Made by a program: the position numbers and the translations under genes
In this document: piece after piece, positions 3,522 through 41,387 of the stretch
Position numbering within the stretch: the stretch's first letter is position 1
Layout: every line of letters starts with the position of its first letter
Notes under the pieces: model-generated
Databases searched by the model: none
Seen by the model: only the letters and a program-made list of their open reading frames with translations
Told to the model about the DNA's origin: nothing
From: Rhizophagus irregularis
Lineage: Eukaryota
Assembly: GCF_026210795.1 (NCBI RefSeq)
Contig: NC_089433.1
Coordinates: 3,410,001-3,474,000 of the forward strand
Length of the DNA stretch: 64,000 nt
Reading direction: 5' to 3'

Positions 3522-5031
3522 ATGGTTACTCAATTTTTTTCGAAATTAAGTCAAAATTATATTGAATTATTAAAAGACGATGAATATTATGATGTCACAA
3601 TTGAAGTTGGTGAAGACCCTAACGTAAAAATATTTTGTGCTCATATGAATATTTTGTGTTACCGTTCTCCATATTTACGACGAATATTAAAGTCTAACAA
3701 AAAGAACAATGATAACGTTTTAACCCATATTAAATTATCAAACACATCACCGGAAATCTTTCAAATTGTATTAGAGTAAGTTAATTATCATGTTATATAT
3801 AACTTTGAATATTCAAATTATAACTTTTATTTTTATAATTAGGTATATTTATGGAGGTATTCTTTCATTGGATGAAAAAGACACTTCAGACCTTCTTAAA
3901 GTTTTGGCTACTGCAGATAAACTTAGTCTTCAAGAGCTAGTTGATTATTTACAAGGATATTTAATTGAAAATAAGTCTGAACAGCTAGAACAATATTTTG
4001 AATTTGCTCAACAAATTAGCTCAAATTCTAATAATTTATTAAAACTTCAAGAATTTTGTACAAATTTAATGGTTCAGTCTCCCGAGAAAGTTCTTAAATC
4101 ATTAAATTTCACTTCATTTCCTGAAAAATCTTTAATTTCACTTATTAAAAGTGATGATTTACAAATGAAAGAAATTGAAATATGGGAACATGTATTAAAA
4201 TGGGGACTTGCACAAAATCCAACTCTCATTCCAGATCCTAAAACTTGGTCTGATGATGATTTTAAAACAATGAAGAATACTCTACAACATTGTTTACCCT
4301 TCGTTAGATTTTTTTGTTTATCACCAAAAGAATTTTCACAAAAAGTTCGTCCATATCAAAAACTCCTAAATCAACAACTTTATGAAGATTTATTAAACTT
4401 TTATTTAGATCCTGAAAGTGTATCATCTCATAACATTCAACTTCCTAGAAAAATTAAAATTAATGAAAACATTGAAGTTATTTGTTCACTAATCGTTAAT
4501 TCTGGTATTGTTTCAACAATTTCAAGATGGATAGATAAAATAGTTATTAATGATAATAATTTTAATGAATCATATTTACCATATAAATTTGAATTATTGT
4601 TAAGAGGAAGTCGAGATGGATTTACTCCTAAAAAATTTCATGAATTGTGTGATAATAAACCTAATACTGTTACATTCATTAAAATAAAAGGAACAGAAGA
4701 AATTATTGGTGGGTATAATCCAGTAATATGGGAAACCCCCCAAACGAGTTCTTGGGGTAAAACCGAAGATAGTTTTATTTTTTCTTTTAAAAATAAGAAT
4801 AATTTTAAAGATGCAATTTTGAGCAAAGTAATAAATTCTAATTATGCACTATTATTTGGTTCTATATCTGGTCCATATTTTGGTGGTGATATTAATATAA
4901 ATGCTTCAAATGAATTTGTAAATTATGACACCACTGAATATTATAATAGTTTTTATGAAAAAAAGATAAGAGATATTGAAGGTAAATTTATTGTAGAAGA
5001 TTACGAAGTGTTTCAAATAATAAAAAAATAA
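3522..5031 (+). CDS. BTB/POZ-BACK-TLDc domain protein (exons 3522-3775 and 3843-5031)
   Basis: BTB motif DVTIEVG..F.AH..IL..RSPY; GTAAG..AG intron restores E-YIYGG; BACK motif EIEIWEHVLKW; TLDc motifs LLLRGSRDGF, IIGGYNP, DSFIFSF, DYEVFQI. Confidence 0.9.
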
Positions 5032-7727: not shown

Positions 7728-9222
7728 CTATTTTCTAATAATACGAAATATTTCATAATCTTTAATAGCAAATTTACCATTTTTTCTTATATTTTTTTCA
7801 TAATGTTTACATTGATGATAACTTTCATCATAATTTGCGAATTCATTGGAAGAATATACGACAATGTCATCTCCAAAACATGGTCCACCTAAATAGTCAA
7901 ACCATACTGCACGATCACTATGATCTACATTACTAATAATTGCATCTTTAAAAAAGATATCATTATCATTGAAAGAAAAAATAAAACTATCTCTTGCGAA
8001 TCCCCATTTACTAGAAGATTCCCATTTTAATGGATTATATCCACCAATAATTTCATTCGTTCCCTGTATTTTAATAAATGTTATAGTATTAGCCTTACCG
8101 TCACATAATTCATGAAATTTTCTAGGTGTAAATCCATCCTGGCTTCCTCTTAACAATAATTCAAATTCATAAGGTAAATATAAATCTCTAATATAAGCGA
8201 ATTTATTATCGATAACCTTATTATCGATCCATCTTGAAATAGCTGAAACAATTCTCAAATCCACAATCTCTGAATCGATTTTGACATTTCTCGGGAGTAA
8301 GATGTTTTCATTTGGTTCATTATCGGGATCCATATAAGAATTTACTAAATCTTCATAAAGTTGATGATTTAATAGTTGTTTATATGGACGAACTTTTTGT
8401 ACAAATTCTTTGGACGATAAACAATAAAATCTGATTAAAGGTAAACAATTTTGTAAAGTATTTTTCATTGTATCGAAATCATTATCTGCCCAAGTATCAG
8501 GATCTGGAATAAGAGTTGGATTTTGCGCAAGACCCCATTTTAATACATGTTCCCATACTTCAACTTCTTTCATTTGTAAATTATCCCTTTTAAGAAGTTT
8601 AATTAAAGATTGTTCAGGAAGTGAAGTAAAATCAAATGACCCAAATATTTTTTCTGGAGATTTAGCCATTAAATTTGTACAAAATTTCTGAATTCCTAAT
8701 AAATTATTAGATTGAAAACTTATTCGATGAGCAAGTTCAAAATTTTGAACTATCCATTCCGATTTATTTTCAATTAAATAACTTTGTAAATAATAAACTA
8801 ACTCTTGAAGACAGAGTTCATCAGCAGCAACCAATACTTTAAGGATGTCTGAAGTAACTTGCTCATTAAACGAAAGAATGCCACCATAAATATACCTAAA
8901 TTATAAAAAAATTATAAAATTAAATCGAAAAGTAATTTAAACGTTTAATTTATTTCTTCATAACTTACATTAAAATAATCTCAAATGTATCTGGTGAAAT
9001 ATTTGGAAATTTAATATGAGACAAGGTACCATCATTCTTTTTTTTATTAGAAGCCAAAACTTTTCGAAAATATGGAGAACGATAACATAAAATATTCATG
9101 TGGGTACGGAATATTTTTACATAAGGATCTTCACCAACTTCAATCGTAGTATCGTAATATTCATCGTCTTCTAACAGTTCAATATAATTTTGACTGAGTG
9201 TCGCAAAAAAATGTGCTGCCAT
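7728..9222 (-). CDS. BTB/POZ-BACK-TLDc domain protein (exons 9222-8969 and 8895-7728)
   Basis: Same motifs and intron position as the 3522 gene; GTAAGT..TAG intron at 8968-8896. Confidence 0.9.
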
Positions 9223-10519
9223 GATATATAAATTTTTTTTTTCTTGAAAAAGAAAAGGTATAATTTAGAAACAATGGGACAATGAATCTATTTTTATAAT
9301 TGATGTAGATAGTAGATACCTTCTAAAAAGAAAAATGATGATCATTTTCAATGCGGGGCGAACGGGGACCTTATATTCACATGATCAACAATAATATTTA
9401 ACGTCATAATTTGATATAATAGTCAATTAGTCATACACCCGAATAGACATGGTCTTGAGTGTCTTCCGCTGCGCTTACATAATATGATAAAAGATGTTCG
9501 TTAAAAATATCTTGGGGAGTAGGGGCTTATAATAAAAAAAGAATATTCCCCTAAAGATAACAAAGTTAAGTTTTTTAATATCAACTTTGTTTTTCTAAAT
9601 ATTATTTATCAAGTTATATCTATGAAATTGATTTTCAAACTTTAAAAATGACAAATAGTGTAAAAAGTAAATTGTTATTCTTACAATAACTTGATAAGCA
9701 TTTTTCACATTTCCACTTTTGGCAATTGATTATGAAATAAAATCATGTGCACATAACTAATAGATCGAAATTTCGTATAATCATCTATTTTATCATAAAA
9801 AATGCGGCATGAATAATTTATAACAATACGAACACTACTTTTTTAATTTATTTTTGAAAAAAATTTGCTTTATTTCATTAAACTTTGTCATTTAAAATTT
9901 TCAAAAAAATTAATTTCAAAGCTTTATACTCGCTTTTTTTCTTACCAATATTCTACTTCAAAGAGCAAAATATATAAATGAAAACCCTCCAAGCTATTCA
10001 TTGATGCTATTTTAACAACTACTATATAAATCATTTAAATGACACGCCAACTGATCATATTAGTAAATAACCCGATCCAATTTATCATCACACTACTATT
10101 ATGGCACTACCAAAAAATTAATAATCCAATCCGCTCAATAAAGTTTAAAATTAATCTAACCAGTTAAATCAACGAACTTTAAATTATAATAATTTTGGCT
10201 AAAATTTTTTTAATTCTAGCCAAAATCGTAGTTCTACTAAATTTGGTTAAAATTGACCATTTTCATCGGAAAAAGTATGGTCCGAAAAAAAATTATAGAA
10301 CAAAGTAATTCTACTTTTGGTTAAAGTAAATTAACTATTGGTTAGAAGATATAAATAACGTCAAAAAAATAAAAAAATAAAAAAAATATTCTAGTATGTT
10401 TCGAAAATAATCAAAATAATCTAAAATGGGAACCAAATTTAGTAAATTAAAAATCTCAAGTAGTAGAAAATTTTATAGTAGCGTTTATTGTACTCCATCA
10501 CTGTCTTTATTGCCAATTT

Positions 10520-12368: not shown

Positions 12369-15300
12369 TTAAATTTCATTTATATCAAACTCATATTCTT
12401 TTGTAATATATTCTAAAGAAAAAGAACCAAGTAATTAATAAACTCCTTTACATACTGATTAAAAAAAATAACTTAATACCTTTATTGTTGATTGATTCTT
12501 CAACGAGTTTATTATCTAAGATAATAATAATTATTAAATATGTTAAAATGTAGTAATTATTGTCCAAATTTATATAAAAATAATGTTTACATACTTGGTT
12601 TCGTATTAAACGTTATTGATCTGCTTGTATAAATTGCATTTGGATGAGGTTTTTCATTAAAATCTGGTCCAAGCATTTTTAATTTTATTAATTCTAATCT
12701 TATTTCTTCAGCTTGATTAAAATATTTGGCATCCATTCCCATATTTGACCACGAATTAAAAATTTCACAAACATCCGTTGCCAAAGGTCTCTTTTTAGGA
12801 TCAGGATTCCAACATTTTTTCATTAAATTAACAAAATCTTCAGGAGTGTCGTAAGTAATATTAGGTCGTTTTCCATCAATAATTTTGTAAATCAAATCAA
12901 CATCATGTTCAACATCAGCAAAAGGTTTACAACCAGTTGTTAATTCCCACATAATCATGCCCATACAATAAATATCAGATGATTTAGAAAATTTGGCGCC
13001 TTTAAATATTTCTGGTGCAATATAAGGTATAACTCCATATATACTGCTATCGTGTGGAATGTCATTTGCGGGCTGTGATAATCCTAAATCTCCAATTAAA
13101 TATTGATCTATTTTACATGAATCATTTTCAATTATTTCAACCAATATATTTCCACTATGAAAATCTCGATGTACGAAATCTTTTTCATGAATAGTTTGAA
13201 GTCTAAAATAAAAAATTGGTTATTAATAAAATTTTATTTAAATAATTTTAAAATCATTATTAATTAACGTAAAGTTATAAATACCCATCTGAAATTCGCC
13301 ACAAAATGTGCAATTTTTTCTTCCATGTAATCTCTGCAAAATTCTTTTGTAAATAATTATGTAAATCTCCTCCATTTGCATATTTCATTATAAACATAAA
13401 TTCTTTTGTTATAGGATCTTTTGCGATACCATGGCATTTAATAATATATTCAAATTTACTATCATAACATTGATAAAGTGATTTTAACTAAAATTTTATA
13501 GTTTAAGTTAGTATATTAAATGTTTTTAAAAAAAACAAATTTTGAAAATTAATTACCTCATTTAAAAAATATTTATTTGGTTCTTGAGAATTTAAAACTT
13601 TTTTTATAGCAACAACGTTTCCATTAATTAAAGCTTTATAAATAATACCAAATCCTCCTTCTGCTATTTTTTTAAAAATTTTAATTTGTGAATATGAAAC
13701 CCATTTTATTTTCGGTTTTGTAGAATGATAATCAAACTCATTTTGAGAACTTTGATATTTTTGTTTCAAAGATTTAAGAAATCCTTGAGAATCTTCTAGA
13801 ATTTCATTTAATTCATCACTGGTAAAAACAAGTAAATGACTTGTATAACATGCTTTTGGATGAGATTTTACAATAAGATTATTATGCTCAATTGGTGCAT
13901 TTATAAATTCCATAATATTACTTTTTAATTCTTCATTAATATCTTCAATTTTCTTATTCTCAGGGCGAAAAATCCAATTTTCAATGATATTTAAAACTTC
14001 TTTAGAAGATGGCCTTTTTAATGAATCTTGATCCCAGCATTTTTTCATTAAATTTATATAACATTGTGGAGTATTTTCAATAATTTCAGGACGTTCACCT
14101 TTACAAATACTTAAAGCAAGTTGAAGATCATGTGCTTTATCATTAAATGGTGGAATTTTAGATATAAATTCCCACATAATTATAGAAAAACTATATATAT
14201 CACTAGCTTGAGTATAAGGCTGACCTCTTAAAATTTCGGGTGCTATAAATGGTAAAACTCCATAGATATCATTTTCTTTTAAAAAAGATTTTGCAAGTTG
14301 ATATAATCCTAAATAATCACTAATAAAAATTCCATATATATCTTCATATTTGCTACATAAAATATTACCATTATGAAAGTTATAATGAATAAGATCTTTT
14401 TCATGAATATCATTAAGACCCTTAATAATTTGATATAAATGAAATAATTTTTGTTCCCAATTTTTTGTTATTTCTATTAAACAACTTTTTAAACTATCCT
14501 TATTTGTATACTCCATTATTAATGCATAATTCAAAGTATCTGGATCTTTTGTAAATCCATATATTTTAATAATTTCACATGAATTAATAATTTTCAACTA
14601 TAAAAAAAAATAATATTTAATTAATTACATAAATAAATTATAATATTAAAAAATAATAATAATATTATTATATCATACTTCATTTAAAAATTCATTTAAA
14701 CTTTCATCTGAATTTTTAAGATAATCAAAATATTTAAAAATTACTTCAACACTATTATATTTAGCTTTATATATAGAACCAAATCCTCCTTTATCAAGAT
14801 ATTCAATATTTTCAAATTTATCATAAGGAACCCATTTTAATTTATTTTTAGAAATAAATTGATCCACAATTTCACTTCCACTATTACCAAATCTTTAAAT
14901 ACAAAAATGAAATTATATTAAAAATTAAATTTAAAATCAAATTTACAATTAAAAATTTAAATATTAAATAATAATAATTATACTTACTCTAAATAAATTA
15001 TAAAATTTTAATATAATAAATAATTAATTAATTTAAATTTTAAATAAATAGTATATAATAACTTATAACTTACCAACTAAAATAAATTATCAAAATTTTT
15101 AAAAAAATTATATATTATAATAAATTAAATATAAAAAAGGATTATTATAATAAAAAAAATGCAATACTTACAGGCTAAATTATTTTAAATTATTTTAAAT
15201 GATTTTAGTTTAAATAATTTAGTTAGTTTAAATTATATGTAAATATTATATAAATATAATAGTATTACTTACGATCTAAAATATTTGAATAATTTTTTAA

Positions 15301-18300
15301 ATAAAGAATTTAGTTAGTTTAAATTATATGTAAATACAATAGAATTAAATAAATAACTTTTAACTTACCAACTAAAAGAAAAAAAGAAATTAAAAACAAT
15401 TTTTTAAATAAAGAATTTAGTTAGTTTAAATTATATGTAAATACAATAGAATTAAATAAATAACTTATAACTTACTAACTAAAAGAAATTACAAAATAAT
15501 TTTTAAATAAAGAATTTAGTTAGTTTAAATTATATGTAAATATTATATAAATATAATAGAATTACTTACATTCTAAAATATTTGAATAATTTTTTAAATA
15601 AAGAATTTAGTTAGTTTAAATTATATGTAAATACAATAGAATTAAATAAATAACTTTTAACTTGCCAACTAAAAGAAATTAAAAACAATTTTTTAAATAA
15701 AGAATTTAGTTAGTTTAAATTATATGTAAATATTATTAAATATAATAGTAGAATTACTTACAATCTAGAATATTTGGATAATTTTTTAAATAAAGAAATT
15801 AGTTAGTTTAAATTATATGTAAATATTATATAAATATAATAGAATTAAATAAATAAATAACATACTCCCTATATTATTAAGTAAATAATTAAATAAAGAA
15901 TTTAGTTAGTTTAAATTATATGTATATAAATATAATAGAATTACTTACATTCTAAAATATTTGGATAATTTTTTAAATAAAGAATTTAGTTAGTTTAAAT
16001 TATATGTAAATATTATATAAATATAATAAGATTACTTACGATCTAAAATATTTGAATATTTTTTTAAATAAAGAAATTAGTTAGTTTAAATTATATGTAA
16101 ATATTATATAAATATAATAGAATTACTTACGATCTAAAATATTTAAATATTTTTTTAAATAAAGAAATTAGTTAGTTTAAATTATATGTAAATATTATAT
16201 AAATATAATAGAATTACTTACGATCTAAAATATTTAAATATTTTTTTAAATAAAGAATTTAGTTAGTTTAAATTATATGTATATAAATATAATAGAATTA
16301 CTTACGATCTAAAATATTTGGATAATTTTTTAAATAAAGAATTTAGTTAGTTTAAATTATATGTAAATACAATAGAATTAAATAAATAACTTTTAACTTG
16401 CCAACTAAAATAAATTAAAAACAATTTTTTAAATAAAGAATTTAGTTAGTTTAAATTATATGTAAATATTATTAAATATAATAGTAGAATTACTTACAAT
16501 CTAAAATATTTGGATAATTTTTTAAATAAAGAATTTAGTTAGTTTAAATTATATGTAAATATTATATAAATATAATAGAATTACTTACTATCTAAAATAT
16601 TTGGGTAATTTTTTAAATAAAAAAATTAGTTAGTTTAAATTAGTATATGTAAATATTATATAAATATAATAGAATTAAATAAATAAAAAGTAAATAATTA
16701 AATAAAGAATTTAGTTAGTTTAAATTATATGTAAATATTATATAAATATAATAGAATTAAATAAATAAATAACATACTCCCTATATTATTAAGTAAATAA
16801 TTAAATAAAGAATTTAGTTAGTTTAAATTATATGTAAATATTATATAAATATAATAGAATTAAATAAATAAATAACATACTCCCTATATTATTAAGTAAA
16901 TAATTAAATAAAGAATTTAGTTAGTAAATTATATGTAAATATTATATAAATATAATAGAATTACTTACGATCTAAAATATTTGGATAATTTTTTAAATAA
17001 AGAATTTAGTTAGTTTAAATTATATGTAAATATTATATAAATATAATAGAATTACTTACTATCTAAAATATTTGGGTAATTTTTTAAATAAAAAAATTAG
17101 TTAGTTTAAATTAGTATATGTAAATATTATATAAATATAATAGAATTAAATAAATAAAAAGTAAATAATTAAATAAAGAATTTAGTTAGTTTAAATTATA
17201 TGTAAATATTATATAAATATAATAGAATTAAATAAATAAATAACATACTCCCTATATTATTAAGTAAATAATTAAATAAAGAATTTAGTTAGTTTAAATT
17301 ATATGTATATAAATATAATAGAATTACTTACATTCTAAAACATTTGGATAATTTTTTAAATAAAGAATTTAGTTAGTTTAATTATATGTAAATATTATAT
17401 AAATATAATAGAATTACTTACGATCTAAAATATTTGAATAATTTTTTAAATAAAGAATTTAGTTAGTTTAAATTATATGTAAATATTATATAAATATAAT
17501 AGAATTACTTACGATCTAAAATATTTGGGTAATTTTTTAAATAAAAAAATTATTTAGTTTAAATTAGTATATGTAAATATTATATAAATATAATAGAATT
17601 AAATAAATAAAAAGTAAATAATTAAATAAAGAATTTAGTTAGTTTAAATTATATGTAAATATTATATAAATATAATAGAATTAAATAAATAAATAACATA
17701 CTCCCTATATTATTAAGTAAATAATTAAATAAAAAATTTAGTTAGTTTAAATTATATGTAAATATTATATAAATATAATAGAATTACTTACAATCTAAAA
17801 TATTTGGATAATTTTTTAAATAAAGAAATTAGTTAGTTTAAATTATATGTAAATATTATATAAATATAATAGAATTAAATAAATAAATAACATACTCCCT
17901 ATATTATTAAGTAAATAATTAAATAAAGAATTTAGTTAGTTTAAATTATATGTAAATATTATATAAATATAATAGAATTACTTACAATCTAAAATATTTG
18001 GATAATTTTTTAAATAAAAAAATTAGTTAGTTTAAATTACATGTAAATATTATATAAATATAATAGAATTAAATAAATAAATAACATACTCCCTATATTA
18101 TTAAGTAAATAATTAAATAAAGAATTTAGTTAGTTTAAATTATATGTAAATATTATATAAATATAATAGAATTAAATAAATAAATAACATACTCCCTATA
18201 TTATTAAGTAAATAATTTAGTTAGTTTAAATTATATGTAAATATTATATAAATATAATAGAATTACTTACAATCTAAAATATTTGGATAATTTTTTAAAT

Positions 18301-19826
18301 AAAGAAATTAGTTAGTTTAAATTATATGTAAATATTATATAAATATAATAGAATTAAATAAATAAATAACATACTCCCTATATTATTAAGTAAATAATTA
18401 AATAAAGAATTTAGTTAGTAAATTATATGTAAATATTATATAAATATAATAGAATTAAATAACATACTCCCTATATTATTAAGTAAATAATTAAATAAAG
18501 AATTTAGTTAGTTTAAATTATATGTAAATATTATATAAATATAATAAAATTAAATAAATAAATAACATACTCCCTATATTATTAAGTAAATAATTAAATA
18601 AAGAATTTAGTTAGTTTAAATTATATGTATATAAATATAATAGAATTACTTACATTCTAAAACATTTGGATAATTTTTTAAATAAAGAATTTAGTTAGTT
18701 TAATTATATGTAAATATTATATAAATACAATAGAATTAAATAAATAACATACTCCCTATATTATTAAATAAATAATTTTAATTAAAGAATTTAGTTAGTT
18801 TAAATTATATGTAAATATTATATAAATATAATAGAATTACTTACGATCTAAAATATTTGGATAATTTTTTAAATAACGAATTTAGTTAGTTTAAATTATA
18901 TGTAAATATTATATAAATATAATAGAATTACTTACGATCTAAAATATTTAAATAATTTTTTAAATAAAGAATTTAGTTAGTTTAAATTATATGTAAATAT
19001 CATACAATAGAGTTAAATAAATAACTTACAACTTACCAACTAAAAGAAATTACAAAATAATTTTTTGAATAATGAATTTAGTTAGTTTAAATTATATGTA
19101 AATATTATATAAATACAATAGAATTAAATAAATAACATACTCCCTATATTATTAAATAAATAATTTTAATTAAAGAATTTAGTTAGTTTAAATTATATGT
19201 AAATATTATATAAATATAATAGAATTACTTACGATCTAAAATATTTGAATAATTTTTTAAATAAAGAATTTAGTTAGTTTAAATTAAATGTAAATATTAT
19301 ATAAATATAATAGATTAAATAAATAACTTACACCCTGTAGCATTATTAATTAATAATAATTATAAAGTAAAGTAATTATAATCAATAATTGTATTTAAAA
19401 TTAAGTATATACAGTAACTTACAATCTAATTATTTAAATAAATATTATTAGTTTAAATTATATATAAATACTTTTAAATTAATATAAAATTAAATACTTA
19501 CTTTCTATAATATTAGTACCATAATTATTAAACAATTATATTAATAGTAAATTTGGTTATTTAAAATCTCAGGCAAAATACAATGAAAAAAAATTAGCTA
19601 TTAACTTACCAACTATAATAATAAAATAAATTATTTGGTTATATAAAATAATAGAAATAAGTAATTTAATTATCATTCCGATTATAAGATAACCTATTAC
19701 TTACGAGCTAATATAGTAAATAATTTTTAGAAATAGTTTAAAAATTTAAATTATACGCTTATAATTTACAAGCTGTTAAATAATTTTCTTACCTTTATCT
19801 TTTTCTATTTTTGAAACTAGTTTCAT
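12369..19826 (-). CDS. Tandem pseudokinase + TKL protein kinase with a microexon-encoded N-terminus. Exons: 19826-19793, 47 x 3-nt exons, 1-nt exon at 14988, 14892-14679, 14597-13557, 13487-13285, 13202-12595, 12515-12480, 12412-12369
   Basis: Canonical splice sites join the track ORFs in frame. Domain 1 has GGFG, VIFK, HYNFHNGN, SDYLG, APE. Domain 2 has GGFG, VAIK, HRDFHSGN, GDLG, APE, SDIY. The C-terminus reads EYITKEYEFDINEI*. The kinase body is high confidence; the 5' microexon model is predicted from sequence only. Confidence 0.8.
14893..19792 (-). repeat. Tandem array of ~80-110 bp intron + microexon units
   Basis: About 50 units sharing the core AAAGAATTTAGTTAGTTTAAATTATATGTAAAT; all but three contain, on the minus strand, TAG/CAG-NNN-GTAAGT/GTATGT/GCAAGT. 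Confidence 0.92.
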
Positions 19827-20777
19827 TATGTTGCAAATTTGGTTTGAAAAAAATTTTAGAGCAATTTCAATTTGTATTAGATATCTATACTCATATTATA
19901 TGCTTTTACCTTCGTCGTTACTTTGAGCCATTACTAAATAATTTTATTGGAATTCTTCCTAAAAATAGGGTAAATACAATTAAACGCCTTTATTCGAATA
20001 TATATAGTTGTTTGTGTAATATTATCTATGCAAAATGCAGATACCAATTTTCAGCCAGATATATTTAATTAGGTAACAAGAACCGTTAGAGTATCCGAAA
20101 TGTTGATGACATCACTAAATTAAAAACGCAACTTTCTTGTCGATCATTAGCTACAAAAGAGTTAAAAGTCAAAACTAATATAGTAATTAGTGCTCTTTGA
20201 AAATTTTGTTGTGAAGTAAGAAGGTGGGCATATCAAAAGTCTGAGTAATTTGTGACTTTGAAGACGGCTGAGGGTGGCGGCGTGGCACAAGAAATAAATA
20301 GTTTTTAGTTTCTGTATTTTTTTTTAGTTATTAGATTTTTTTGATTTTTTATCGATACAAGCATACAGTTTAGTCTAGCATCATATCTGATATGTATTTT
20401 GGTAGTTAGCAGTTAGGTTTAGAGTTTTGTTTTGTCTTCTAGTTTAACAAAAATTCAGTAGTTAAACGAAAAATAGAACATGTATTAGGTCATGTGACGC
20501 GGTGTTTTGTTGTAAGATGTACAGTACATTCTAGTCCTCGATGATTGAAAAGAAAAAGAGATTCTATTTATTTTTTGTGAACCATTTTTTTTTAAAAAAA
20601 AATTATAATTATCTGTACTATACTCCAGAGCGAAGAGTGGAGACTATATGTGATTTATAAATCATTTATTGTCCGGAGGACTATATATGTTTGTGAACTT
20701 TAATTGCATATTGGATCACGTGGCGAAGTCTGTTTGAAATGGATTATCAAAATCGATATATAACCTTAAGCTTATAT

Positions 20778-21338: not shown

Positions 21339-23968
21339 CGGGCTTGGCGAAAACTACACCTAATTTTATAATTTACGAAAAAGATATATTAAATGCAAAA
21401 CACATTTATGACTTACAGATGGAAATGCTATGTAAGAATTTGCTGTATCAGGCGAACGGCAATAATAAATTGAAAACATTATTTGCGATAAAAAATGTCA
21501 CAAGAACAGAAAAATATTTGGACGTCAAAATGCCCAGGAGAGATAAAAATAGAAAGTAAATATCATCATAATTGGATATTAGCAGCAATTAAGATGTTAA
21601 ACAAAGAAAATATAAAATTATATAACCATGAGAGCAGAAATAATAACGATAAACACAGAATAAAAGAAGGGAAAATCGATATTTTAGAATTAATAGACAA
21701 AAAGAGATTGTAGAAGACATTCTTGAAGCAGATGGAGTTAAATTGTTAAAATGGAAACACTTATGTAAGGAAAAAGGATTAAATACGAAAGGAAAGACAC
21801 CGAAATGGTTTAAAGATATAGAAAAAAAGGTTTTAGAAGATGAAAATGGAAATTTAAGAAAAATAAAAAGAGAATATATAGGACAAGTAGATAAAATAAA
21901 ATACATATTAATTATTTCGATGAAAATGAAAAACAAGGGAAAAATTGTATGAACGACGAACATGATTTCCCAATTTTTGGCGAAGATAAAAAAAGATCAC
22001 AAAGTAAAAATCACAAAAGAATAGGAATACATTTAGAATTGGTAGGAGAGGAATATGATTTAAACAATTCATCTTATCTGAAAAAATGCGAAGGATGTAG
22101 TAGAAATATTAGTAAGAAAAAAGGAAATAAAGAATGTTTGATATATTTAGAAAATGAATACAGTAGGAAAATTGAAAGACGAAAAGATGATGGTTTAATT
22201 AAACCATATGAGACTTTAAACAATATAATTAAGAAAAATAATTGGTTAAGAAAATTTACGCAAGAAGAAAGAAGAGATGAAATTTACAACGAAAGAATAG
22301 GAAAAATAGATAGCATAATTAAAGCCGATGAAGAATTTATTATGTTAATTAAAAATAGTATTTTCGAAAATGATGAAAACTTTTCGAGAGAAAAAAGAAG
22401 ATTTTTCCTAATAATTGATGCAGTCAAAACAAGATCTACAGTTAACGAAAAAGGGAAAAGAATTTATAAATACAATATTATATGGAAAATTATAAATTTT
22501 AATGAAGAAGGAAATAAAGAATCGGAAATAATTTTCTTAGCCAAACACATGTAATAACGAGAACGAATAAAATGAAAAAATTCAAAGACTAATATTCGAA
22601 TTTAATAATAAAATTAGTAATAGAAGGAAGATAGATAGCGATTATAATTTAGAATTATTATTTATAGAAAATTTTTTAGAATATAATGAAATTAGGATCA
22701 TAGATAGTAATGAAAAAGAATATAGATTATTAAAAGGGTTAAGGAAAGAATTGAGAAATATGTTAAAGGATAAAAATTTAATTCAAACGATAAAATATAA
22801 TTTTGAAATAGTAGACGAAGGCTTACTGACGAATGAATACAATTTGATTTAGAATGATAGGATAATTACAGGAGGTTACAGGGGTTGGAAAAAAAAGTTA
22901 CGAACGCAATTTGGAAAAACGAAATACTTAATAGCGAAAAGCTAAATGATTTATTTATGTACAATCACAAAAAAGAATTCGATTGGCAAACTACTTTAGA
23001 ATTTGTGAGTAATAGAATTAATTTTTCACAAAGACAATGCAGCAACAAGGATACGAAAGAAAGATCCTACAGAATTAAAATTTATTGAAAGAACAATCGA
23101 CCTATAAAATTTTACATAAAAGAAATGCTAATAAAATAGAAGACGACAAATGTATAAGATGTGGAAAAAATGAAATAGAAAGTTGGGAACACATCTGGAT
23201 ATGTGAAGTTAACGAATTCTCGATCGATGAAATTGTACAAGAACCGATATATCGTTTTGAACAACAATTAAAGAACTGTAACCAAGACGAAGATATAAAT
23301 ATTCTGAGGAACTACAATATCGAATTTATAAGTATATTAGAAAGTCCTTCGATAATTTTGAGAGGAAAAAGTAAAAAATGGGAATTAATTAGAGGTGTAT
23401 ATAACGAACATTTCAATAGTCTATCAAATAAGAAAGAAGAGAAAATGCTGATAAAAAGACTTTGGATGTTTGTTTATGACGAAATTAAAAATCGTTTATG
23501 GATACCAAGATGCGAGGAAATTAAACGATTAGAAGAAAAAGCTAATATTCAAAAATTGGATTTAAGGAAAAAAAGAGAAAGTAGAAGAAAATTCGGAGGA
23601 AGGCAAGGAAGAAAAAATAAAAAATAATAGAAAAAAAATAAAAACAGAAGAAAAATTAGAAAAAGCAAATAAAAATAAATTTAACAAAAAAATTAGTATA
23701 GTAAACGTTAGAAAGATTAACAGGTTCAATTGTGGACGGGAATAGTGTTGCAAAAACTTGGGATACATCGGTAAAAATGACAAATTATTTAGATTAGACA
23801 TAATTTAGCATAGTTTTCAGTAATAGAATTTTGTTCAAATATTACTTAGTTATAGAGTTTTGAGAATTTTATTTCGAAAAGCTCTAAGTATTTTTATAAT
23901 TAATTATGTAATCTGTATCAAATTTAAATAATTAATAAAATGCGTCACTATTTAAAAAAAAAAAAAAA
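21339..23968 (+). mobile_element. 5'-truncated, degenerate non-LTR retrotransposon (LINE)
   Basis: Purine-rich broken ORFs; C-terminal zinc motif CIRCGKNEIESWEHIWIC; AATAAA plus poly(A) at 23954-23969; 15-bp TSD AGAATAATTATGTAC at 21324-21338 and 23969-23983. Confidence 0.85.
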
Positions 23969-25492
23969 AGAATAATTATGTACAAATATAAAAGAATATA
24001 AGAAAGAAAGGTAATATAAAAGAATGTTTGATATACTTAGAAAAGGAAGTTAAAAGAAGAACAGAGGAATCATGTATAAAGCCACACGAGACGTTAAGAA
24101 ATATAATTGTTAAAAATAATTGCGTGAAAAATTATAATGAAGAAGAGGAAAGAGATAAAATTTATAATGAAAGGATAGAATTAATAGACAATTTAATTAA
24201 AATAGAAATAGATTTTATAGAAATATTAAAGTATAGTATAATATAAAGGGAAAAGAATGATAAAAAGGCGATTTTTGATTATAGATTGTATAAAAGTTAA
24301 AAGTAAAATAACGAATAATGGGAAGAGAAACTTTGAATATATAGTAATGTGGTTAATTAGAGAAAATGAATATAAAGTTGAACATAATAATGAGTTGAGA
24401 TTTAGCGTGAAATATAATTCTATTAATGAAAATGAGTATAAAATTCTTATTAGAAGTTTAATTATAGGAATTTTACTTTTAGGGAAATAAGTGATATAAT
24501 TCTAGGAATTAATGATAATGTCTTAAAACTATTACACGAATTTATGGGAAATTTAAGTAATAATTATTGTTTATAGAAAATTTTTTAGAAAAGAACAAGA
24601 TGGAAATAATTGAATATGCTCATAATGAAATGAAAATGATAGATGAAATGAAAAAGAGATTAGGTTGATGTTAAAAGAGCGAAAAGATAAAAATGAAGAA
24701 AAGTATAATTTAGAATTAATAGACGAGGCTTTATTCAATAGTTCACTCTTCCAAATCGCCTCTGTATAATCTCCTAATATCATTTTCTTTTTCCAAAACA
24801 TATTAAATTCATTAATTATTAGTGTTAAATTAGTAGATTTATTTTTTCTATAATTTTGGAACGAGTTTGATTGGAATGCAACGTTAAAATTTATAAGTAA
24901 TCGCAACAATTTCTCTTTTTGGCAATGTAATCAAAATGATACAAAGGATAGATTTTACAAAATTAAAAATCTAATCAAAGAATTGCAAGTCCTTTATAAA
25001 AGAGAAGTAAATGGAACTATAGAAGATAATGTCCGAGATGTAAAAAGTTTAGTGAGGATTGAGAACATGTTTGGATTTGTGAAGCAAATGATATAGAAGT
25101 AAATGTTTTGATAAAAAATTCCGTTTACGATTACGAGTTAAAATTGCTAGAAGAAAAGAAAAATGAATAAGCTGAAATAGTAAGAGATATTAATTTTGAG
25201 TTTATTAGAACAACCAGCAAAAATACTTTGGGAAAATAAAAAAATTAATTAGAAATATTAGGATAGTAACGAATGATCGGCGAAATAACAGAAGGGAATT
25301 GGATGATAGTTAAAGTGATTTAATAATTTAGTCTAAAATAGATTATATTTATCTTTATTAGATTTAGATTGAACTTAGTTATAGAGAATATTATAATGTA
25401 AATTATTATATTTTCTAGGCGTTTAAATAATTATGTAAACAATTGTATAATTGTTCTTAATTAATAAACGCGTTACTATTTTAAAAAAAAAA
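23969..25492 (+). mobile_element. Older related LINE fragment (its 5' stub lies at ~21260-21338)
   Basis: Paralogous peptides (ECLIYLE, KPHETL, IYNERI, FDWNAT, CPRCKK..EHVWICE); similar 3' end AATAAACGCGTTACTATTTT-poly(A). Confidence 0.8.
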
Positions 25493-29183: not shown

Positions 29184-30692
29184 TTATTCCCTAATAATTT
29201 GGTATACTTCATAATCTTCCATAAAAAATTCACCATCATCTCTTATTCTTTTTTCATAATAATATCTCTTTTGATAATGAATTTCATCATAATTTGTAAA
29301 TTCATAGGAAGCGTATATATTGATATCATCTCCAAAGCATGGGCCAGCTGTAGTACTAAACCATAATGCACAATCCGCAACTTCTATATTACTAATAATT
29401 CCATCTTTAAAAAAGATATCATTACTTTTAAGAGAAAAAATAAAACTATCTTTAGCTTCACCCCAATCATAATTAGACTCCCATTTTATAGGATTATATC
29501 CACCAATAATCTCATCCGTTCCTCTTACTTTAATAAAAGTAACAGTATTTGATTTACCATCACATAATTCATGGAATTTTTTAGGAGTTAACCCATCTCG
29601 ACTTCCTCTTAATAATAATTTAAATTTATAAGGTAAATATAAATCTCTAATATAAGCGAATTTGTTATCGGTAACATTATTATCAATCCATCTTGAAATA
29701 ATTGAAATAATTCTTAAATCTACAATCCTTGAATTAATTTTGATATTTCTAGGGAATAAGATGTTTTCATTTTGTCCATTATCAGGATCCATATAAGAAT
29801 TTACTAAATTTTCATAAAGTTGATGTTTTAAAAGTTTCTTATATGGACGAACTTTTCGTACAAATTCTTGAGATGATAAACAATAAAATCTGATTAAAGG
29901 TAAACAATTTTGTAAAGTATTTTTCATTGTATTGAAATCATCATCTGTCCAAGTATCAGGATCTGGAATAAAAGTTGAATTTTTTGCGAGACCCCATTCT
30001 AATACATGTTCCCAAACCTCAACTTCTTTCATTTGTAAATCATCTCTTTCAATGAGCTTAATCAAAGATGTTTCAGGAAGTGAAGTAAAATCAAATGAAT
30101 CGAATATTTTTTCAGGAGATTTAGCCATTAAATTTGTACAAAATTGTTGAATTACTAATAAATTAGTAGATTGAAAACTTATTCGATGAGTAAGTTCAAA
30201 ATTTTGTTCTATCCATTCCGATTTATTTTCAATTAAATACCCTTGTAAATAATCAATTAATTCTTGAAGACAAAGTTCATCTGCAGCGGCTAAAATTTTA
30301 AGGATATCGGAAGTATCTTGTTCATTTAATGAAAGAAAACCACCATAAATATATCTAAATTATGAAATTCATAAATTAAATTAGAAATTTAATCATGTAT
30401 TAAAATTATTTCTTTATATATCAGATATAACTTACTTTAAGATAATCTGAAATATTTCTGGTGATATATTTGGTAATCTGATATGAACTAAATTATTAGT
30501 ATTATTGCTCCTGTTATTGGAAGCTATAATTCGTCGTAAATTTGGAGAACGGTAACATAAAATATTCTTGTGAGCACGGAATATTCTTACATAAGGATCT
30601 TCACCAGCTTCTATCTTAATATCGTAATATTCGTCATCTTCTAATAGTTTAATATAATTTTGACTTAATTTTGAAAAAAACTTTTTTAACAT
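29184..30692 (-). CDS. BTB/POZ-BACK-TLDc domain protein (exons 30692-30436 and 30354-29184)
   Basis: BTB, BACK and TLDc motifs; conserved phase-2 intron before YIYGG. Confidence 0.9.
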
Positions 30693-32250: not shown

Positions 32251-33754
32251 TTAATTTTTCACAATTTGAAATATTTCATAATCTTCCATAGAAAATTTGC
32301 CTTCTTGATCTCTTATCTTTTTTTCATAAGAAGTATTTATACAAAAGAACTTACAAAAATTTTCATTTTCATTTAATGAACCTATTGCAAGATCACGATT
32401 AAAACATGGTCCATTTCTTGGGTGATTTGCCATTGCGCAATTAATATTTTTTACATTACTAATGATTGCGGTTTTAAAATTACTTTTAAATGAAAAAATA
32501 AAACTATCTTTAGTTTTAATCCAATTATTAGAAGTTGACCATGTTAAAGGATTATATCCACCAATGATTTCTTCCGCTCCTTCGATTTTAATAAAAGTGA
32601 CAGTAATGAGTTTATCATCACATAATGTATGAAACTGTTTAGCAGTAAAACCATCTCGACTTCCTCTTAGTAATAATTTAAATTTATATGGTAAATATAA
32701 TTCTCTCAAATAAGAAAATTTACGATTAACATCCACTTTATCAATCCATCTTGAAATAATTGAAACAATATTTAAACTAACAATTGTTGAATCAATTACT
32801 TCGTCAATATGAATATTTCTAGGAAGTGAAATATTATCATTTGGTATACTATCAGGATTCATGTAAGAATTTAATAAATCTTTATAAAGTTGAGAGTTTA
32901 AAAGTTTTTTATATGGATCAATATTTTGTAAAAATTCTTTAGATGATAAACTAAAGAATCTGATTAAAGGTAAACAACGTTGTAAAGTATTTTCCATCAT
33001 TCTATAATCATCATCAGTCCAAGTATCAGGATCTGAAATAAGAGTTGAATTTTGCGCGAGACCCCATTCTAATACACGGTCCCAAACCTCAACTTCTTTC
33101 ATTTGTAAATCATCTCTTTCAATGAGCTTAATCAAAGATGTTTCAGGAAGTGAAGTAAAATCAAATGAATCGAATATTATTTCAGGAGATTTAGCCATTA
33201 AATTTGTACAAAATTGTTGAATTTCTAATAAATTATTAGATTGAAAACTTATTCGATGAGTAAGTTCAAAATTTTGTTCTATCCATTCCGATTTATTTTC
33301 AATTAAATACCCTTGTAAATAATCAATTAATTCTTGAAGACAAAGTTCATCTGCAGCGGCTAAAATTTTAAGGATATCGGAAGTATCTTGTTCATTTAAT
33401 GAAAGAATACCACCATAAATATATCTAAATTATGAAATGCATAAATTAAATTAGAAATTTAATCATTTTTTAAAATTATTTCCTCACAACCCACCTTAAG
33501 ATAATTTGAAATATTTCTGGTGATATATTTGGTAATCTAATATGAACTAAATCATTAGTATTACTGCTCCTGTTATTGGAAGCTAAAATTCGTCGTAAAT
33601 ATGGAGAACGGTAACACAAAATATTCGTGTGAGCACGGAATATTCTTACATAAGGATCTTCACCAACTTCAATTGTAATATCGTAATAATTTTCGTCATT
33701 ATCCAATAATTCTAAAAAATTTTGGCTTAATTTTGAAAAAAATTTTACTGACAT
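32251..33754 (-). CDS. BTB/POZ-BACK-TLDc domain protein (exons 33754-33495 and 33424-32251)
   Basis: Same motifs; the in-frame donor is the weak AG|GTGGGT. Confidence 0.85.
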
Positions 33755-35257: not shown

Positions 35258-37009
35258 ATCCCATATCTGAAATATAAAATATACTACTACTATTAGTTGC
35301 ACCAGCAATATTTGATAATATATTCCTGTATGAAAATCATGGTGAACCATCTTTTTTTGATGAATTTCTTTAAGACCCGTACTAATATTAAGTAGCATTG
35401 ATATTTTATTGTACCAGTTAAGGTTTCTATAATTTTTGTTCATCCAATTCTTTAAATTTCCGCCCTTTGCATATTCAAGAACTATAATGTAATCCTTTGT
35501 ATCTGGATTTTGAGATATTCCATATATTTTAAGTATTCCTCCATTATCAATTGAATATGATTTAACCTATTAAATATAAAAGAAATTTATTATTAAAATA
35601 TATAACTAAATTAAATTTACAGAAAAATCCTGTACCTCATTAAGAAATTCACTTGTGATATGTTGGGAATTATATAAACATTTTAATGCAACTTTTTTAT
35701 TCTGATTGATTTATTACATTATATTGTAATGGGCCATCTTTCCATATTGCTAAATACACTTTAGCAAATCCACCTTCACCTATTTCTTTAATATTGATAA
35801 ACTGATTATATGGTATCCATTCAAATACTATATCATTATAAGTATTAATTTTTGACTGCATTTCCTGAATTAAATTATTAATTCTTTCATATTTACTGGT
35901 CCAGTTCATAGAACTTTTTCTTGATAAAGCATTTTTTTGACATGGTTTGCACCATTTATAGAAATAGAAATATCTGTAAGTCTTTTACATTTTTCACAAT
36001 AATATTTATTTGGAAAAACTATAATATAATCTCTTGTATTAGGATTTTGAGATATACCATATATTCTATGTTCATTACTAGTACTATTAACCTATAAAAT
36101 AAAGAAGTTTTTTATTATATTAAAGTATTTAATTTAAAAAGAAAATCTTATACCTCATTCAGAAATTCATCGGTAGTAGTATTTTGCGAATTATATAATT
36201 TTAGAATGACTTTTGTATTCTTTCTTCTTATATATTTGTTGTCACAATAATTAACATAATTATAAAACAATCGATCATCATTCCATATTGCTGAATAAAT
36301 CATAGTAAATTCATCTTTTTCTAACTCTTTAATATTATTAAACTGATTATATGGTATCCATTCAACTATAATATCATTAAACCCATTAATATTTAATTGT
36401 TTTTCCTGAACTAAATTATCAATTTTTTCATTTCCGCTGGTCCAATTTTTTTCTAAATCATTAATTTGACATGATTTACACCATTTATAAGTTTTCTTTG
36501 TAAATTTCTTACCACACTTATTACAATATAAATTTCGGAGAATTAAAATATAATCTTTTGTTTCTGGATTTTGAGATATTCCGTATAAATACTTCCCATC
36601 AAAAAATTTAACCTGTAAAATATAAGAAAATTATTATTATTACACTTTACTAAATATTTATTAATAGTGAAAATATATACGTACCTCATTTAGAAATTCA
36701 TTGGTAATACTTTGAGAGTTGTGTAGATATTTACAATTGGCTTTTATATTCTGTTTTCTCGTATATTCATATTTATTTGTATCATATTTTAATAGACCAT
36801 TCTTCAATATTGCTGAATATATTGTAGAAAATTCATCTTTTCCTAATTCTTTGATATAATTGAACTGATTATATGTTATCCATTCAACTATAATATCATT
36901 AGAGTTATTAATTTCTAATTGCATTTCCTGAATTAAATTATCAATTTTTTCATTTCCACTGGTCCAATTTGTAAAATTATTTTTTAGATTATTTATCTGG
37001 CACGGTTTG

Positions 37010-38873
37010 ATAATGGTGTAGTTAGCCGAAAAATTCAGCCGAAGGCGCAGTAAATTTTCGGATAACAACACCCAGCCGAAAAAAATTCATGTTGATCTAG
37101 AATATTTTATTGAATGTTTTATTGGTTCAACATCTACTATTTTCGGCTGAATATTTTCGTCTAACTACACTTTTTTTAAATAATAGTGTAGTTAGCCGAA
37201 AATATCCAACCAGAGGCGCAAGAAACGCCAATATATAATATTCCAGGAGACCAAAGCGAACCAGCAAGACAAGGAGGCAACATCAAAATGTGATGATTTT
37301 ATATATATTTAATATATTTAACTTATTTAATTATAAAATATATAAAATTTTATAATCATTTATATTTTATTAAGCTATAATAAATGTTCAAACAAAATTT
37401 ATTTTAATTATATTATTATTCAATTTAATCATACCACAAATGCCTTACTTTCAGTTTGTTTCTCAATCCATAATTTAATAGCATTTCTCATCAATGCATT
37501 AGCAGATAATTCAGATCTTTTAACAATTTTAGAAACAGCTGATTGTCCAAATCCAATTTGTGATTTAGCTAATTCACAAATTTCATCAGCAGCAATTTGT
37601 TGTGTAATACCTTTAAAAGAATTTTACACTTTTGAAATGCTTCAACAAATCCATTTGCTATTATTTGATCCTCTAGTGATACTTTTGTTTATTTCCATTG
37701 TTCAATGGGATCATCATCTTTAATTTTGTTTAACCTTTTTTTTTATTTGGCTGAGAGCTTTTTACATATTTTCGTGATCTAATATTTAACTGAGGCTAAA
37801 CCATATAGAGCACCTAATGGACTCCATGCTCCTATACGACACATTTCCATAATCTCAGCAACAAATGGTGCAATATTTCTATATTCTATTTGCTAATATT
37901 TCTTATTATTTGCTTTTAAAAATGCTCTATCTAAATACAAATAATCTTTTTCAAAGACTTCTAAGACAAGATATTCATCAGCATATGCCATCAACTCTAA
38001 TATTGTAAATAGACGAAGTTGTGTTGATAAAGAGTTTTTGTGAATAAAAAAATAGGATACTGCATTATATAAGCAATTTCCATCAGCAGTTGTATCAGCA
38101 TATATATAACCATTAAATTCATCTGGTAATAATAAACATGCACCTTCATCTATAACTATACCCTCAGATATACAAACATCTACATATGAAAGATCACAAG
38201 ATAAAATTTGAATTTTTTTATGCTTTTGTCCATAAGACATTATTTCACTTAAACTTGGTAATTTGGCAAGGAATTTTCTAGTTTTAATTAAAAGTTGTTT
38301 AAATAGAATCCATAATTAAGTGAAGTATTTCAGTAAATTTAGCAAATTTTATAACAAAGAAAAAAAGTTTATTAAAAAAAAAATTATCTTTGATTATATT
38401 TAAATCCATTTTATTGAATATTTTCCAAGAATTTAAAAATTATTTACAAGCAAATATTAAAATTAAACATTTTAAAGAAACAATTTTACACCAAACAATA
38501 CCATTTAATAATTAACGATTCTGTATTACATAGATTAATATTATCAAGAAAAGTATATAATTATTATTATTGTAATAATTACATAATATTTACCATTAAA
38601 TAATAATGGTAAATATTATAATATGAACAATCAGGATTTTCATTACCTGTTACCACTTAAATTATTGTATTGCATTTGATATTTACGGCTAACTACACTT
38701 TTTTAAAATAATAATGTAGTTAGCCGTAAATATCTAGCCGAAAATAGTAGATGTTGAACCAATAAAATATTCAAAAAATATTCAAGATCAACATGAATTT
38801 TTTTCGGCTGGGTGTTGTTAGCCGAAAATTTACTGCGCCTTCGGCTGAATTTTTCGGCTAACTACACCATTAT
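37010..38873. mobile_element. MULE-like element with ~195-bp TIRs
   Basis: Long TIRs ATAATGGTGTAGTTAGCCGAAAAATTCAGCCGAAGGCGCAG...; 9-bp TSD CACGGTTTG/CACGGTATG; removing it restores the kinase WCKPCQ codons. Confidence 0.9.
37440..38300 (-). pseudogene. OTU/vertnin-like cysteine protease fragment carried inside the MULE-like element
   Basis: TTADGNCLYNAVSYF..STQLRLFTILEL matches the OTU DGNCL catalytic-Cys motif; continues after a break as EIMEMCRIGAWSPLGALYGLASV. Confidence 0.6.
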
Positions 38874-41387
38874 CACGGTATGCACCATTTAGAATATGTA
38901 TCTAAATATTTGCTAACACATTTATCACAATATATATCTTGAAGAATTATAATATAATCCTTATCAGGATTTTGAGATATTCCATATAGGTGATCATTCT
39001 CAAAATATGGCTTAACCTATTGAAACATAAAATTTTATTATAAAATAATTTATAAATTAAATTAAAGGCATACATAACTTATTCAGAAATTCACTGGTAA
39101 TATTTTGTGAGTTATATAATTTTAAATTGACTTTTGTACTCTGATAGAAATAAATATGAATATATAAGAAAACATACTTTAATGGACCATCCTTCCATAT
39201 TGCTGAATATATTGTAGCAAATTCATCTTTTCCTAACTCTTTAATATCATCGAACTGATCATATGGCATCCATTCAACTATAATATCACGATCATCAATT
39301 ATTAATTGCATTTCCTGAATTGAATTATCAATTTTTTCATTTCCGCTGGTCCAATTTGTAAAATTTTTTTCAAAATCATTTATCTGGCATGATTTACACC
39401 ATAAACTAAATTCATCTATAAAACATTTGCTACATTCATTACAATATTTATTTCGAAGAACTAAAATATAATCTTTTGTGTCTGAATTTTGCGATATACC
39501 ATATAGATCATCACGCGCCTATCAAAACAAGAGAAATTTATTATTATTAGGATCATGCCGATCTTGATGGACCGTTATTTTTATCAGTAAAAAGGGTGGG
39601 ATAAAAATATTGGTTATGTATAAAAATAACACGTTAATTAATTAAAAAACTAGGCTTTTATATAAAAACTGCTAAAATTAGGCATGATCTTGGGTGGCAT
39701 GCATAATAATACAGCTATTGAATGGGAGGGTAACATATAAAATCACCCCTATAGAGTGACCAATATTTTTACCCATCCAATAACTATATTTAAAGTATTT
39801 AAATTAAATAGTATAATTCATACCTCATTTAGAAATTCATCAGTAATATTTCGGGGGTTGTGTAAACATTTTAAATTAACTCTTGTATCCTGGTTTCTTG
39901 AATATTTTCGTTATATTTTAATGGACCATCCTTCCATATTGCCGAATAAATTGTAGAACATTCATCTTTATCTAACTCTTTAATATCATTAAACTGATCA
40001 TATGGTATCCATTCAGTTATATTATCAGAACTTCGAAGGATTTCTAATTGCATTTCCTGAATTAAATTGTCAATTTTTTCATTTCCACTAGTCCAATTTG
40101 TAAAATTATTTTGTAGATTATTTATCTGACATGATTTGCACCATTCAAAACGTAAATACTTTCCACATCTTTCACATTTCATTGTAATAATAATATGGTT
40201 TATACTATTTTAAAATTTTTCAACGTTTACAAGAAATGAAAATCTTGGAACGTCCAACAAGTTTCTTATCTATTGATTTGTTGGCGTAACGTCACATTTG
40301 CCACAAGTCCCATTAATTGATTAAATATTGTTGTGAATAATCATTTGGGTGACACGTGTGACGATTAATTCCATAAATGTTTATTATGTATTTTATAAAA
40401 TATATTAATAAAAATAAATTCAGTTCAAAACTAGCAGTTACCCGCTGCTACCAATGAGTTTGTTTAAGAATTAAGTAGAACAATTTAGTATTATAATGTA
40501 AATCATATCGACAATTAGTAGATTGATATAAATTATATTTACAGTATTAGAATAATATAAATTAGTATATTTAGAATACAATATTAGAATTATATGAATT
40601 ATATTTACAATAATGTCAATAATGTAAATGATATAAATTACAGTGCATTAGGGTAATTTAAATTATATTTACCATTAATAGGTATATGTAATATGAGAAT
40701 TTAATACGTTGATATGATTAATGATTATATGGCGTTTATGCAATTATGATCTATAAAATTTATGCCTGCTCTATACTTGGTTTTTGTTCTCTACACTTGG
40801 CTTTTGATTTTTTCTGTGACGGGCTTGACTTTCATTATTTAATCTTTTTTTACGTTGTTCAGATATTTCACTTTCAAATAATTAAGCCATATGGATTTAG
40901 TATTAACAAAATATTACATATTATATTGATGGAAATTTTTGATACTTAATATATCATTTATGAAATATAAAAAAAAAATTCTCAATAATATATACAATAC
41001 ATGTGGTTCATCGTTCAACAATATATTTGTACAGTATATTATTTAAAAAAAAAATATTTAAAAAAATTTCTTACTGCTTTTTATTATATATTAAAAAAAC
41101 CTACAATAAAAAAGAAATTAACAATTATGTCTGCAATTTATTATTGTTAAAAAAAAATTCTCAAAAAAGAGATATTATCTTAACACGTCCATTTATTATT
41201 ATCTTTGGTAAAATAAATCAAATTATTCTACAGCCAAATAGGATCATGCTTTTTTCATCATGCTGATATTTTTTTATTAAGCTATAAATAAACTACCATT
41301 GCATAATTATTATTGATATTTTTGACGTTGATTAATCAATAGTTTATTGTATTTATAAGATGATCATTGGCGGCTGCAGAATAACAC

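Follow-up and report, generated by a model that had tools for sequence, protein, structure and literature searches.

A chain of one-codon exons at the 5' end of a predicted tandem kinase gene in Rhizophagus irregularis

In the truffle Tuber melanosporum, the NACHT-ankyrin (nank) genes have been described as carrying tens of alternatively spliced mini-exons of 3 base pairs (Iotti et al. 2012, as cited in PMC4986451, PMC3689799, PMC9815663 and PMC13449251). Passages of two of these citing papers (PMC9815663, PMC13449251) also describe highly conserved internal repeats in fungal NLRs that are reshuffled by unequal crossing-over, and the sections of PMC12230235 drawn on here report 89 gene models of Coprinopsis cinerea with an exon of 3 nucleotides (nt) or less, with counts of 13 exons of 1 nt and 27 exons of 3 nt. 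Here, we describe an array of consecutive 3-nt exons that precedes a predicted tandem kinase gene of Rhizophagus irregularis. The array lies on the minus strand of a 64,000-nt stretch of DNA (GCF_026210795.1, NC_089433.1:3,410,001-3,474,000), hereafter the window, within which all positions are counted.

As far as these partial descriptions allow a comparison, the locus shares with the Tuber nank genes dozens of tandem 3-nt exons, an expanded fungal signalling family as host and a reading frame that is kept under skipping. Unlike the Tuber genes, which encode NLRs, its host is a tandem pseudokinase-kinase of the Glomeromycota, and the array is N-terminal whereas that of Tuber lies in the C-terminal recognition domain. 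The window exons are in phase 1 and are closed by a 1-nt exon; the Tuber genes are set apart from them on the basis of the citing descriptions, which come without exon phase. Alternative splicing has been reported for the Tuber mini-exons, whereas the window offers a spliced contig that reaches the edge of the array and continues for 177 letters. The locus resembles the cited account of Coprinopsis in that internal exons of 1 nt and 3 nt are spliced in fungi and break gene models if missed, but it has 48 such exons in succession, compared to about one per gene. Near-identical tandem units, putative unequal crossing-over and a homogenised core recall the fungal NLR repeats as the above passages present them; unlike those repeats (WD40, ANK, TPR), the window unit adds 3 coding nt and no repeat fold.

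We conclude that the array is a real and selected gene structure, which works like the Tuber array without being a member of that family. New relative to Tuber are the Glomeromycota kinases, the N-terminal placement and the split codons, and a literature search, with subscription papers and supplements outside its scope, found no description of one-codon exon arrays in Rhizophagus. The explanation we favour, with a probability of about 0.7, is that the introns of the array are spliced out singly, giving the protein a variable N-terminal peptide, and that the array changes by duplication, reordering and loss of cassettes while the frame is kept.

The array and its reading frame

Parsing the minus strand from 19900 to 14500 gave a chain of donors at intervals of about 90 nt, with YAG and three further bases before each. 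A pattern scan for YAG-NNN-donor, with GTAAGT, GTATGT or GCAAGT as the donor, found 47 such units from 19707 to 15074 on this strand, while the same scan outside the array found one site on the minus strand (window 50270) and none on the plus strand. A three-donor version of the pattern had 13 matches in the window compared to 0 in 100 shuffles, and spacers of 0, 2, 4, 5, 6 or 7 nt between YAG and donor were absent from the array. Tandem Repeats Finder assigned some 44 copies of a 91-nt unit to 15211-19314, in addition to the higher periods 194 and 471; roughly 97% of each unit is intron and its coding part is only 3 nt.

The exon triplets comprise GGA (13), ATC (11), TTG (6), ATT (6), AAT (4) and ATA (2), together with CTC, AAA, GGT, TTA and CCT, which occur once each. 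This agrees with the initial annotation of the sequence, which had listed CTC, AAA, GGT and CCT as unique exons. The same annotation had taken all units to be 3 nt long, which is correct for the 47 units but not for the last microexon (14988..14988, minus strand), a 1-nt exon between TAG and GTAAGT that leads from phase 1 to phase 2. The array as a whole falls into three parts on the minus strand. Its 5' end (19335..19792) has five introns, four of them at background similarity, with 3-nt exons at 19707, 19612, 19504 and 19425 and a fifth exon at 19334; the homogenised core (15175..19331) has 41 introns of 75-104 nt, save for three of 186 nt; and the 3' end (14893..15174) has three diverged introns and the exons CCT (15174) and TTG (15076). 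A recursive-splicing ratchet point is a zero-length exon, in which AG directly precedes a donor, and the number of such zero-length AG-donor sites in the array was 0.

The reading frame is open from the predicted ATG via all 47 units and the 1-nt exon into the first kinase domain. When the 1-nt exon is left out, the frame into this domain meets stops; when it is included, a Glu-Phe pair arises, as it does at the equivalent place in a related metagenome locus (L062). Since the array exons are in phase 1, each codon is split between neighbouring exons, with its first base in one exon and the other two in the following one, so that gain, loss or skipping of a cassette keeps the frame and can recode the neighbouring residue. 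Were all exons included, the array would add at most 48 residues to the protein, chiefly Asn (10), Trp (7), Arg (7) and His (5) along with Phe, Asp and Glu. Stops arise at none of the adjacent exon joins, at 26 of 1081 possible skip junctions and in 2 of 47 single skips, and the array would allow about 10^12 distinct exon strings. A phase-2 reading was ruled out by 7 stops in the window array, and a phase-0 reading because both flanking exons require phase 1.

The host gene and its RNA

RNA data were aligned to positions 12400-15205, taking the contigs of two sets (X1, X2) as RNA-derived from their spliced joints and using a third set (X24) as raw polyA reads. Between them, these sets showed splice joints at three predicted introns, with 2-6 reads of X24 at the matching joints. 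Record 6 of X1, a contig of 905 letters, covers 14084-14597 and 14679-14892 with 0 differences. Its match stops exactly at 14892, at the edge of the array, with 177 further upstream letters that do not align to this stretch. The distance from the ATG to 14892 would be 188 nt if every unit were included, and the 177 letters fit near-complete inclusion, as 142 letters of the array, 24 of exon 2 and 11 of exon 1. Exon 2 and the acceptor share five end letters, so that joining exon 2 directly to the kinase exon should have carried the X1 piece past 14892; that the piece stops there speaks against such a join. In another set (X5), 19-20 contigs align to the cassette at 15057-15089 alone and diverge on both sides of it, which points to other arrays in that organism.

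These data bear on the main rival to our explanation, namely that all 48 microexons are constitutive and that diversity exists at the DNA level only, between paralogs or isolates, without regulated or stochastic skipping. Constitutive inclusion departs from the favoured explanation in its last step only. It is consistent with the 177 upstream letters, which match near-complete inclusion, and with the passage of one contig at depth 17 unbroken across the array edge, and fungi whose introns are short seldom skip exons. However, contigs lose rare variants, the 186-nt fused introns of the core suggest that a donor can pair with the next-but-one acceptor, and the Tuber arrays are described, in the papers citing them, as alternatively spliced. 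We regard constitutive inclusion as a substantial possibility, at somewhat less than even odds.

The predicted gene has 56 exons by hand sum and about 777 codons, all on the minus strand. Exon 1 (19910..19931) comprises 22 nt from the ATG and ends in phase 1, and its start fits an N-terminal family motif seen in 13 fetched kinase models, for example P0103, P0111 and P0156. Exon 2 (19793..19816; 24 nt, phase 1 to phase 1) has the donor GTAAGA at 19792, and the public model P0155 begins with these residues too and leads into the same kinase exon. An ATG just before exon 2 was considered as the start and dropped, the upstream ATG with a 93-nt intron being a better fit to the family. Downstream of the array lie the N-lobe exon of kinase domain 1 (14679..14892), at whose boundary the spliced X1 contig ends; the rest of kinase domain 1, the linker and the start of kinase 2 (13557..14597), whose flanking introns are spliced in X1, X2 and X24; and kinase domain 2 with the last exons (12369..13487), as exons 13487-13285, 13202-12595, 12515-12480 and 12412-12369, the last two placed by eye. 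The C-terminus of the predicted product matches P0035.

The two kinase domains scored 109 and 83 bits against PF00069 (curated Pfam cut-off 31.7), while N-lobe exons alone matched no Pfam family at cut-off. Kinase domain 1 has HYN where HRD is expected and is likely a pseudokinase, judging from its motifs; in kinase domain 2, AIK, HRD, DLG and APE are all present. A pseudokinase-kinase pair with a variable front end recalls the tandem-kinase immune receptors of plants. The kinase-like family (PF00069/PF07714) is large, with 883 hits at E<=0.001, nearly all from Rhizophagus among the matches listed. The model P0035 (OCT59_025265, Rhizophagus irregularis) is 100% identical over the best alignment, which covers 47% of the query, and starts at an internal Met, without the array and most of kinase 1. 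Similarly, 87 of 146 fetched public models start inside, or at most 12 residues from, the exon that follows the array, and no transcript-derived N-terminus was found among 29 hits, the best 120 of 883, the best 150 of 329 or the cluster look-ups. The array occupies the place where other family members carry a Cys-rich segment before a WTSGN motif. Kinase-family genes with repeated N-lobe-like exons and a Cys-rich segment before the WTSGN motif also lie elsewhere in the window, at 36148-39518 and 51857-59138.

Diverged ends and turnover of the core

The initial annotation had proposed an age gradient along the array, in which diverged end units keep their splice sites while the core was recently amplified. 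Its first part is borne out: the 7 terminal introns (4 of the first 5 and the last 3) had a best-hit identity of 0.68-0.73 to any other intron, the background level set by their own shuffles against the core (0.64-0.70), compared to 0.83-1.00 for the 41 core introns. YAG and GTAAGT were present at all 7 of the terminal 3-nt exons, where composition leads one to expect 0.002 sites in 794 nt. The similarity profile along the array was, however, a plateau with short shoulders (0.82-0.87) rather than a smooth gradient. End units are flanked by unique DNA on one side and would escape homogenisation; rather than age, the gradient may reflect end units left out when unequal crossing-over evened out the core.

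Within the core, 1 of 27 splice-signal sites was variable (a permitted GC donor), compared to 18 of 69 flanking sites (Fisher p=0.011, an optimistic value and a guide only, as the copies are related and the units were chosen by splice motif). Splice sites are thus less variable than their flanks, and together with the persistence of splice signals at the diverged ends this upholds the proposed purifying selection on splicing. The per-position conservation profile is circular at splice sites and was not used as proof. The sequence comparisons support the view that selection acts on the splicing of the array.

The alternative in which the core is a neutral intronic satellite, derived from one intron-exon unit and skipped as one long intron so that the mRNA would contain no microexons other than the end exons and the 1-nt exon, would account for the absence of any core junction from the RNA and for the spread of a splice-signal deletion to three copies; core splice sites may also be intact only through recent copying, given the 0.83-1.00 identity. 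Three observations count against it. Splice sites are less variable than their flanks even inside the core, the related loci L006 and L062 keep 17-18 consecutive 3-nt exons amid mutually diverged introns, and the deletion, of 21 nt, took both splice sites and preserved the frame. We consider a neutral satellite unlikely.

The core is built from three cassette types, as previously noted, with 22 copies of ATx/AAT, 13 of GGA and 5 of TTG/TTA. In 40 of 40 cassettes the flanks on both sides were those specific to the exon type, and 8 of 9 ordered pairs of cassette types occur as neighbours, which points to a mobile unit centred on the exon. These results support an exchange unit made of a 3' half intron, the exon and a 5' half intron; gain and loss in whole units, as proposed before, therefore stands, with the exon in the centre of the unit in place of an intron plus exon. 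A 20-nt mid-intron block that contains CTAAC is common to 42 of 49 introns and is the likely site of unequal crossing-over. The block duplications named in the initial annotation were confirmed, with 100% identity between 16560-16800 and 17031-17271 and 99.3% between 18720-18870 and 19108-19258, and exact repeats reach 338 nt at an offset of 471. Turnover by near-identical tandem units fits these duplications and the 40/40 linkage, with crossing-over itself as the presumed mechanism.

Two further features of the core had been counted as separate events. Three units had been described as clean losses of acceptor, exon and donor, and all three are present as 186-nt fused introns within 16592..17701 on the minus strand, with junctions at 16687/8, 17158/9 and 17611/2. 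The 21 nt missing from them correspond to an acceptor, a GGA exon and a donor, a length read by eye against an intact GGA cassette. Since the three introns are 99-100% identical and the junction is the same in all, they reflect one deletion that was later copied. Likewise, the two TTG cassettes with GC donors are present within 15660..16401 (minus strand, donor starts 16401 and 15665, 736 nt apart), and since the introns preceding them are 99% identical they probably count as one duplicated event.

An assembly artefact might lie behind the copy number and the block pattern of the core, where exact repeats extend to 338 nt (offset 471) and no reads were mapped. We consider this very improbable, as 42 of 49 introns are distinct, with nested variants, and similar arrays occur in independent assemblies; an artefact could change the unit count but could not create the array.

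Related arrays and significance

A metagenome search with a two-consecutive-unit pattern gave at least 107 stretches; 105 loci were taken and 26 kept by eye, most of the 79 set aside being GTAA-type microsatellites or short perfect repeats. In 8 low-GC loci, the YAG-N-GTAAGT spacers were 3 nt long in 63 cases, 16 of which were imposed by the search pattern, and 12 nt in 2, with no other length from 1 to 11. The introns of these loci are mutually diverged, yet they contain a version of the mid-intron block of the window, and in L006 and L062 runs of 17-18 consecutive 3-nt exons are kept despite this divergence. Arrays precede kinase sequence in L006, L062, L018 and L043; those of L006, L062 and L018 enter a kinase-family N-lobe exon in phase 1, the phase also of the first exon of L006. 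Over the window and the 8 loci (115 exons), phase 1 held 1 stop, where letter shuffles lead one to expect 8.3; phase 0 held none and phase 2 held 19.

Public gene models provide a further comparison. Several Rhizophagus models have N-terminal tips rich in Ile, Gly, Leu and Met (P0034, P0064, P0078, P0092, P0133, P0080, P0023, P0031 and P0202), and these odd tips resemble strings of microexons that gene predictors have joined in an incorrect phase. In P0034, from R. diaphanus, the 25-residue tip shares with the window array the rare residues at its ends, a Lys close to the start and a Pro close to the end, and has a core that is different and shorter. With the kinase loci, these tips and the X5 contigs, the array type recurs across an expanded family of kinase paralogs.

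Arrays were also found in other hosts. Seven GTPase-like arrays (136 exons) had 0 stops in phase 0 and 18 in phase 1, opposite to the kinase arrays. These are L038:5300-9100, with 45 units and mutually diverged introns, and L076, L034, L010, L101, L102 and L003, the host of the last three being assigned by eye from resemblance; the GTPase-like hosts matched no Pfam family at cut-off and gave weak P-loop hits only. At L024:3190-7974, a NACHT-like and ankyrin gene is followed by about 36 three-nt units with a diverged start and a homogenised core, an architecture shared with the Tuber nank genes as the citing papers present them, and in L033 the 3-nt units stand directly before ankyrin repeats. 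L024 and L033 are likely Tuber-type arrays in other fungi. The short genes L086:190-785 and L100:120-560 have a first exon that by eye resembles a signal peptide, followed by 3-nt exons; the first exon of L086 ends in Lys-Arg and three of its 3-nt exons are Cys codons. One-codon arrays may thus exist in small secreted proteins as well.

The fixed exon length bears on a third alternative, in which the array is a regulatory device whose roughly 50 extra introns slow or throttle expression through retention and decay, or act as points of stepwise splicing, with the peptide as a tolerated linker. The lack of excess variation at exon sites is consistent with such a device, as is the seemingly weak expression in X24, where the matching joints have 2-6 reads, but the array has no zero-length AG-GT site, its exons are fixed at exactly 3 nt, the stop-free phase agrees with the flanking exons, and the array replaces in position the Cys-rich segment that precedes WTSGN in relatives. 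A purely regulatory role is, in our judgement, improbable, slightly more so than a neutral satellite.

Other features of the window include a region just upstream of the kinase gene (21589-25100) with fragmented plus-strand open reading frames and strong GC and AT skew, which is probably a decayed mobile element; the two reading frames tested there had no Pfam hit. Four similar BTB-BACK-TLDc genes lie at 3775-5031, 7728-9264, 29184-30359 and 32251-33429, with Pfam run on the 7728-9264 copy only. At 54904-56615, two blocks of a repeat of about 80 nt, AT-rich and with internal palindromic arms, are each followed by a similar non-repetitive tail.

Several points weigh against the favoured explanation. 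No microexon junction was read in RNA, and the 177 letters could equally represent fewer exons and a longer 5' untranslated region. Phase 0 is also stop-free in the window array, the stop statistics count related copies as independent, and 24% of random exon orders are stop-free (order shuffles, P=0.29), so that exon order shows no selection; exon-order shuffles of the window and the 8 loci likewise give no signal. Core exon sites vary like their flanks (3 of 9 compared to 18 of 69, p=0.70), and diversifying selection on the codons consequently lacks support. A CTAAC-type motif stands 37-49 nt upstream of the acceptor in nearly all core introns, and the conservation peak predicted for it is seen in the core and in one shoulder intron, but CTAAC, CTAAT, CTGAC or TTAAC occurs 15-50 nt from the 3' end in 0 of the 7 diverged introns. 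In addition, the metagenome loci were picked by eye (26 of 105), locus L054 looks decayed, and the public models with microexons are gene predictions, maybe ab initio guesses, several of which use phase 0.

Under the favoured explanation, the short introns would be recognised by intron definition and excised in succession. Cassettes would be duplicated, reordered and deleted through unequal crossing-over in the mid-intron block that they share, whereas end units, held in place by unique DNA, would drift yet keep their splice sites under selection. The least certain steps are variable skipping of cassettes at the RNA level, by analogy with Tuber, and the use of the peptide as a recognition surface that gates the kinase; both the skipping and a sensing role of the peptide are plausible. 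A broader proposal would be that split-codon cassettes across the large kinase family of arbuscular mycorrhizal fungi diversify receptors twice, by DNA shuffling through a conserved intron block and by combinatorial RNA skipping, with a different residue arising at every new junction. The resulting pseudokinase-kinase would bear a hypervariable sensor peptide, aromatic and polar in character, as the fungal counterpart of junctional diversity, and the device would be reused in kinases, NLRs, GTPases and small secreted proteins. Taken as a whole, we hold this proposal to be rather doubtful.

In the main model of mycorrhizal fungi, these findings correct the 5' structure of one gene and probably that of many of its paralogs, whose public models mostly start after the array. 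They extend the mechanism cited for truffle NLRs to another fungal lineage and protein class, and about 50 consecutive introns lying 1-3 nt apart provide a natural test case for how spliceosomes act on overlapping sites. As the codons are split, skipping would recode as well as shorten the peptide. For a symbiont whose kinase family is very large, the array offers a possible origin of protein diversity that can be put to the test.

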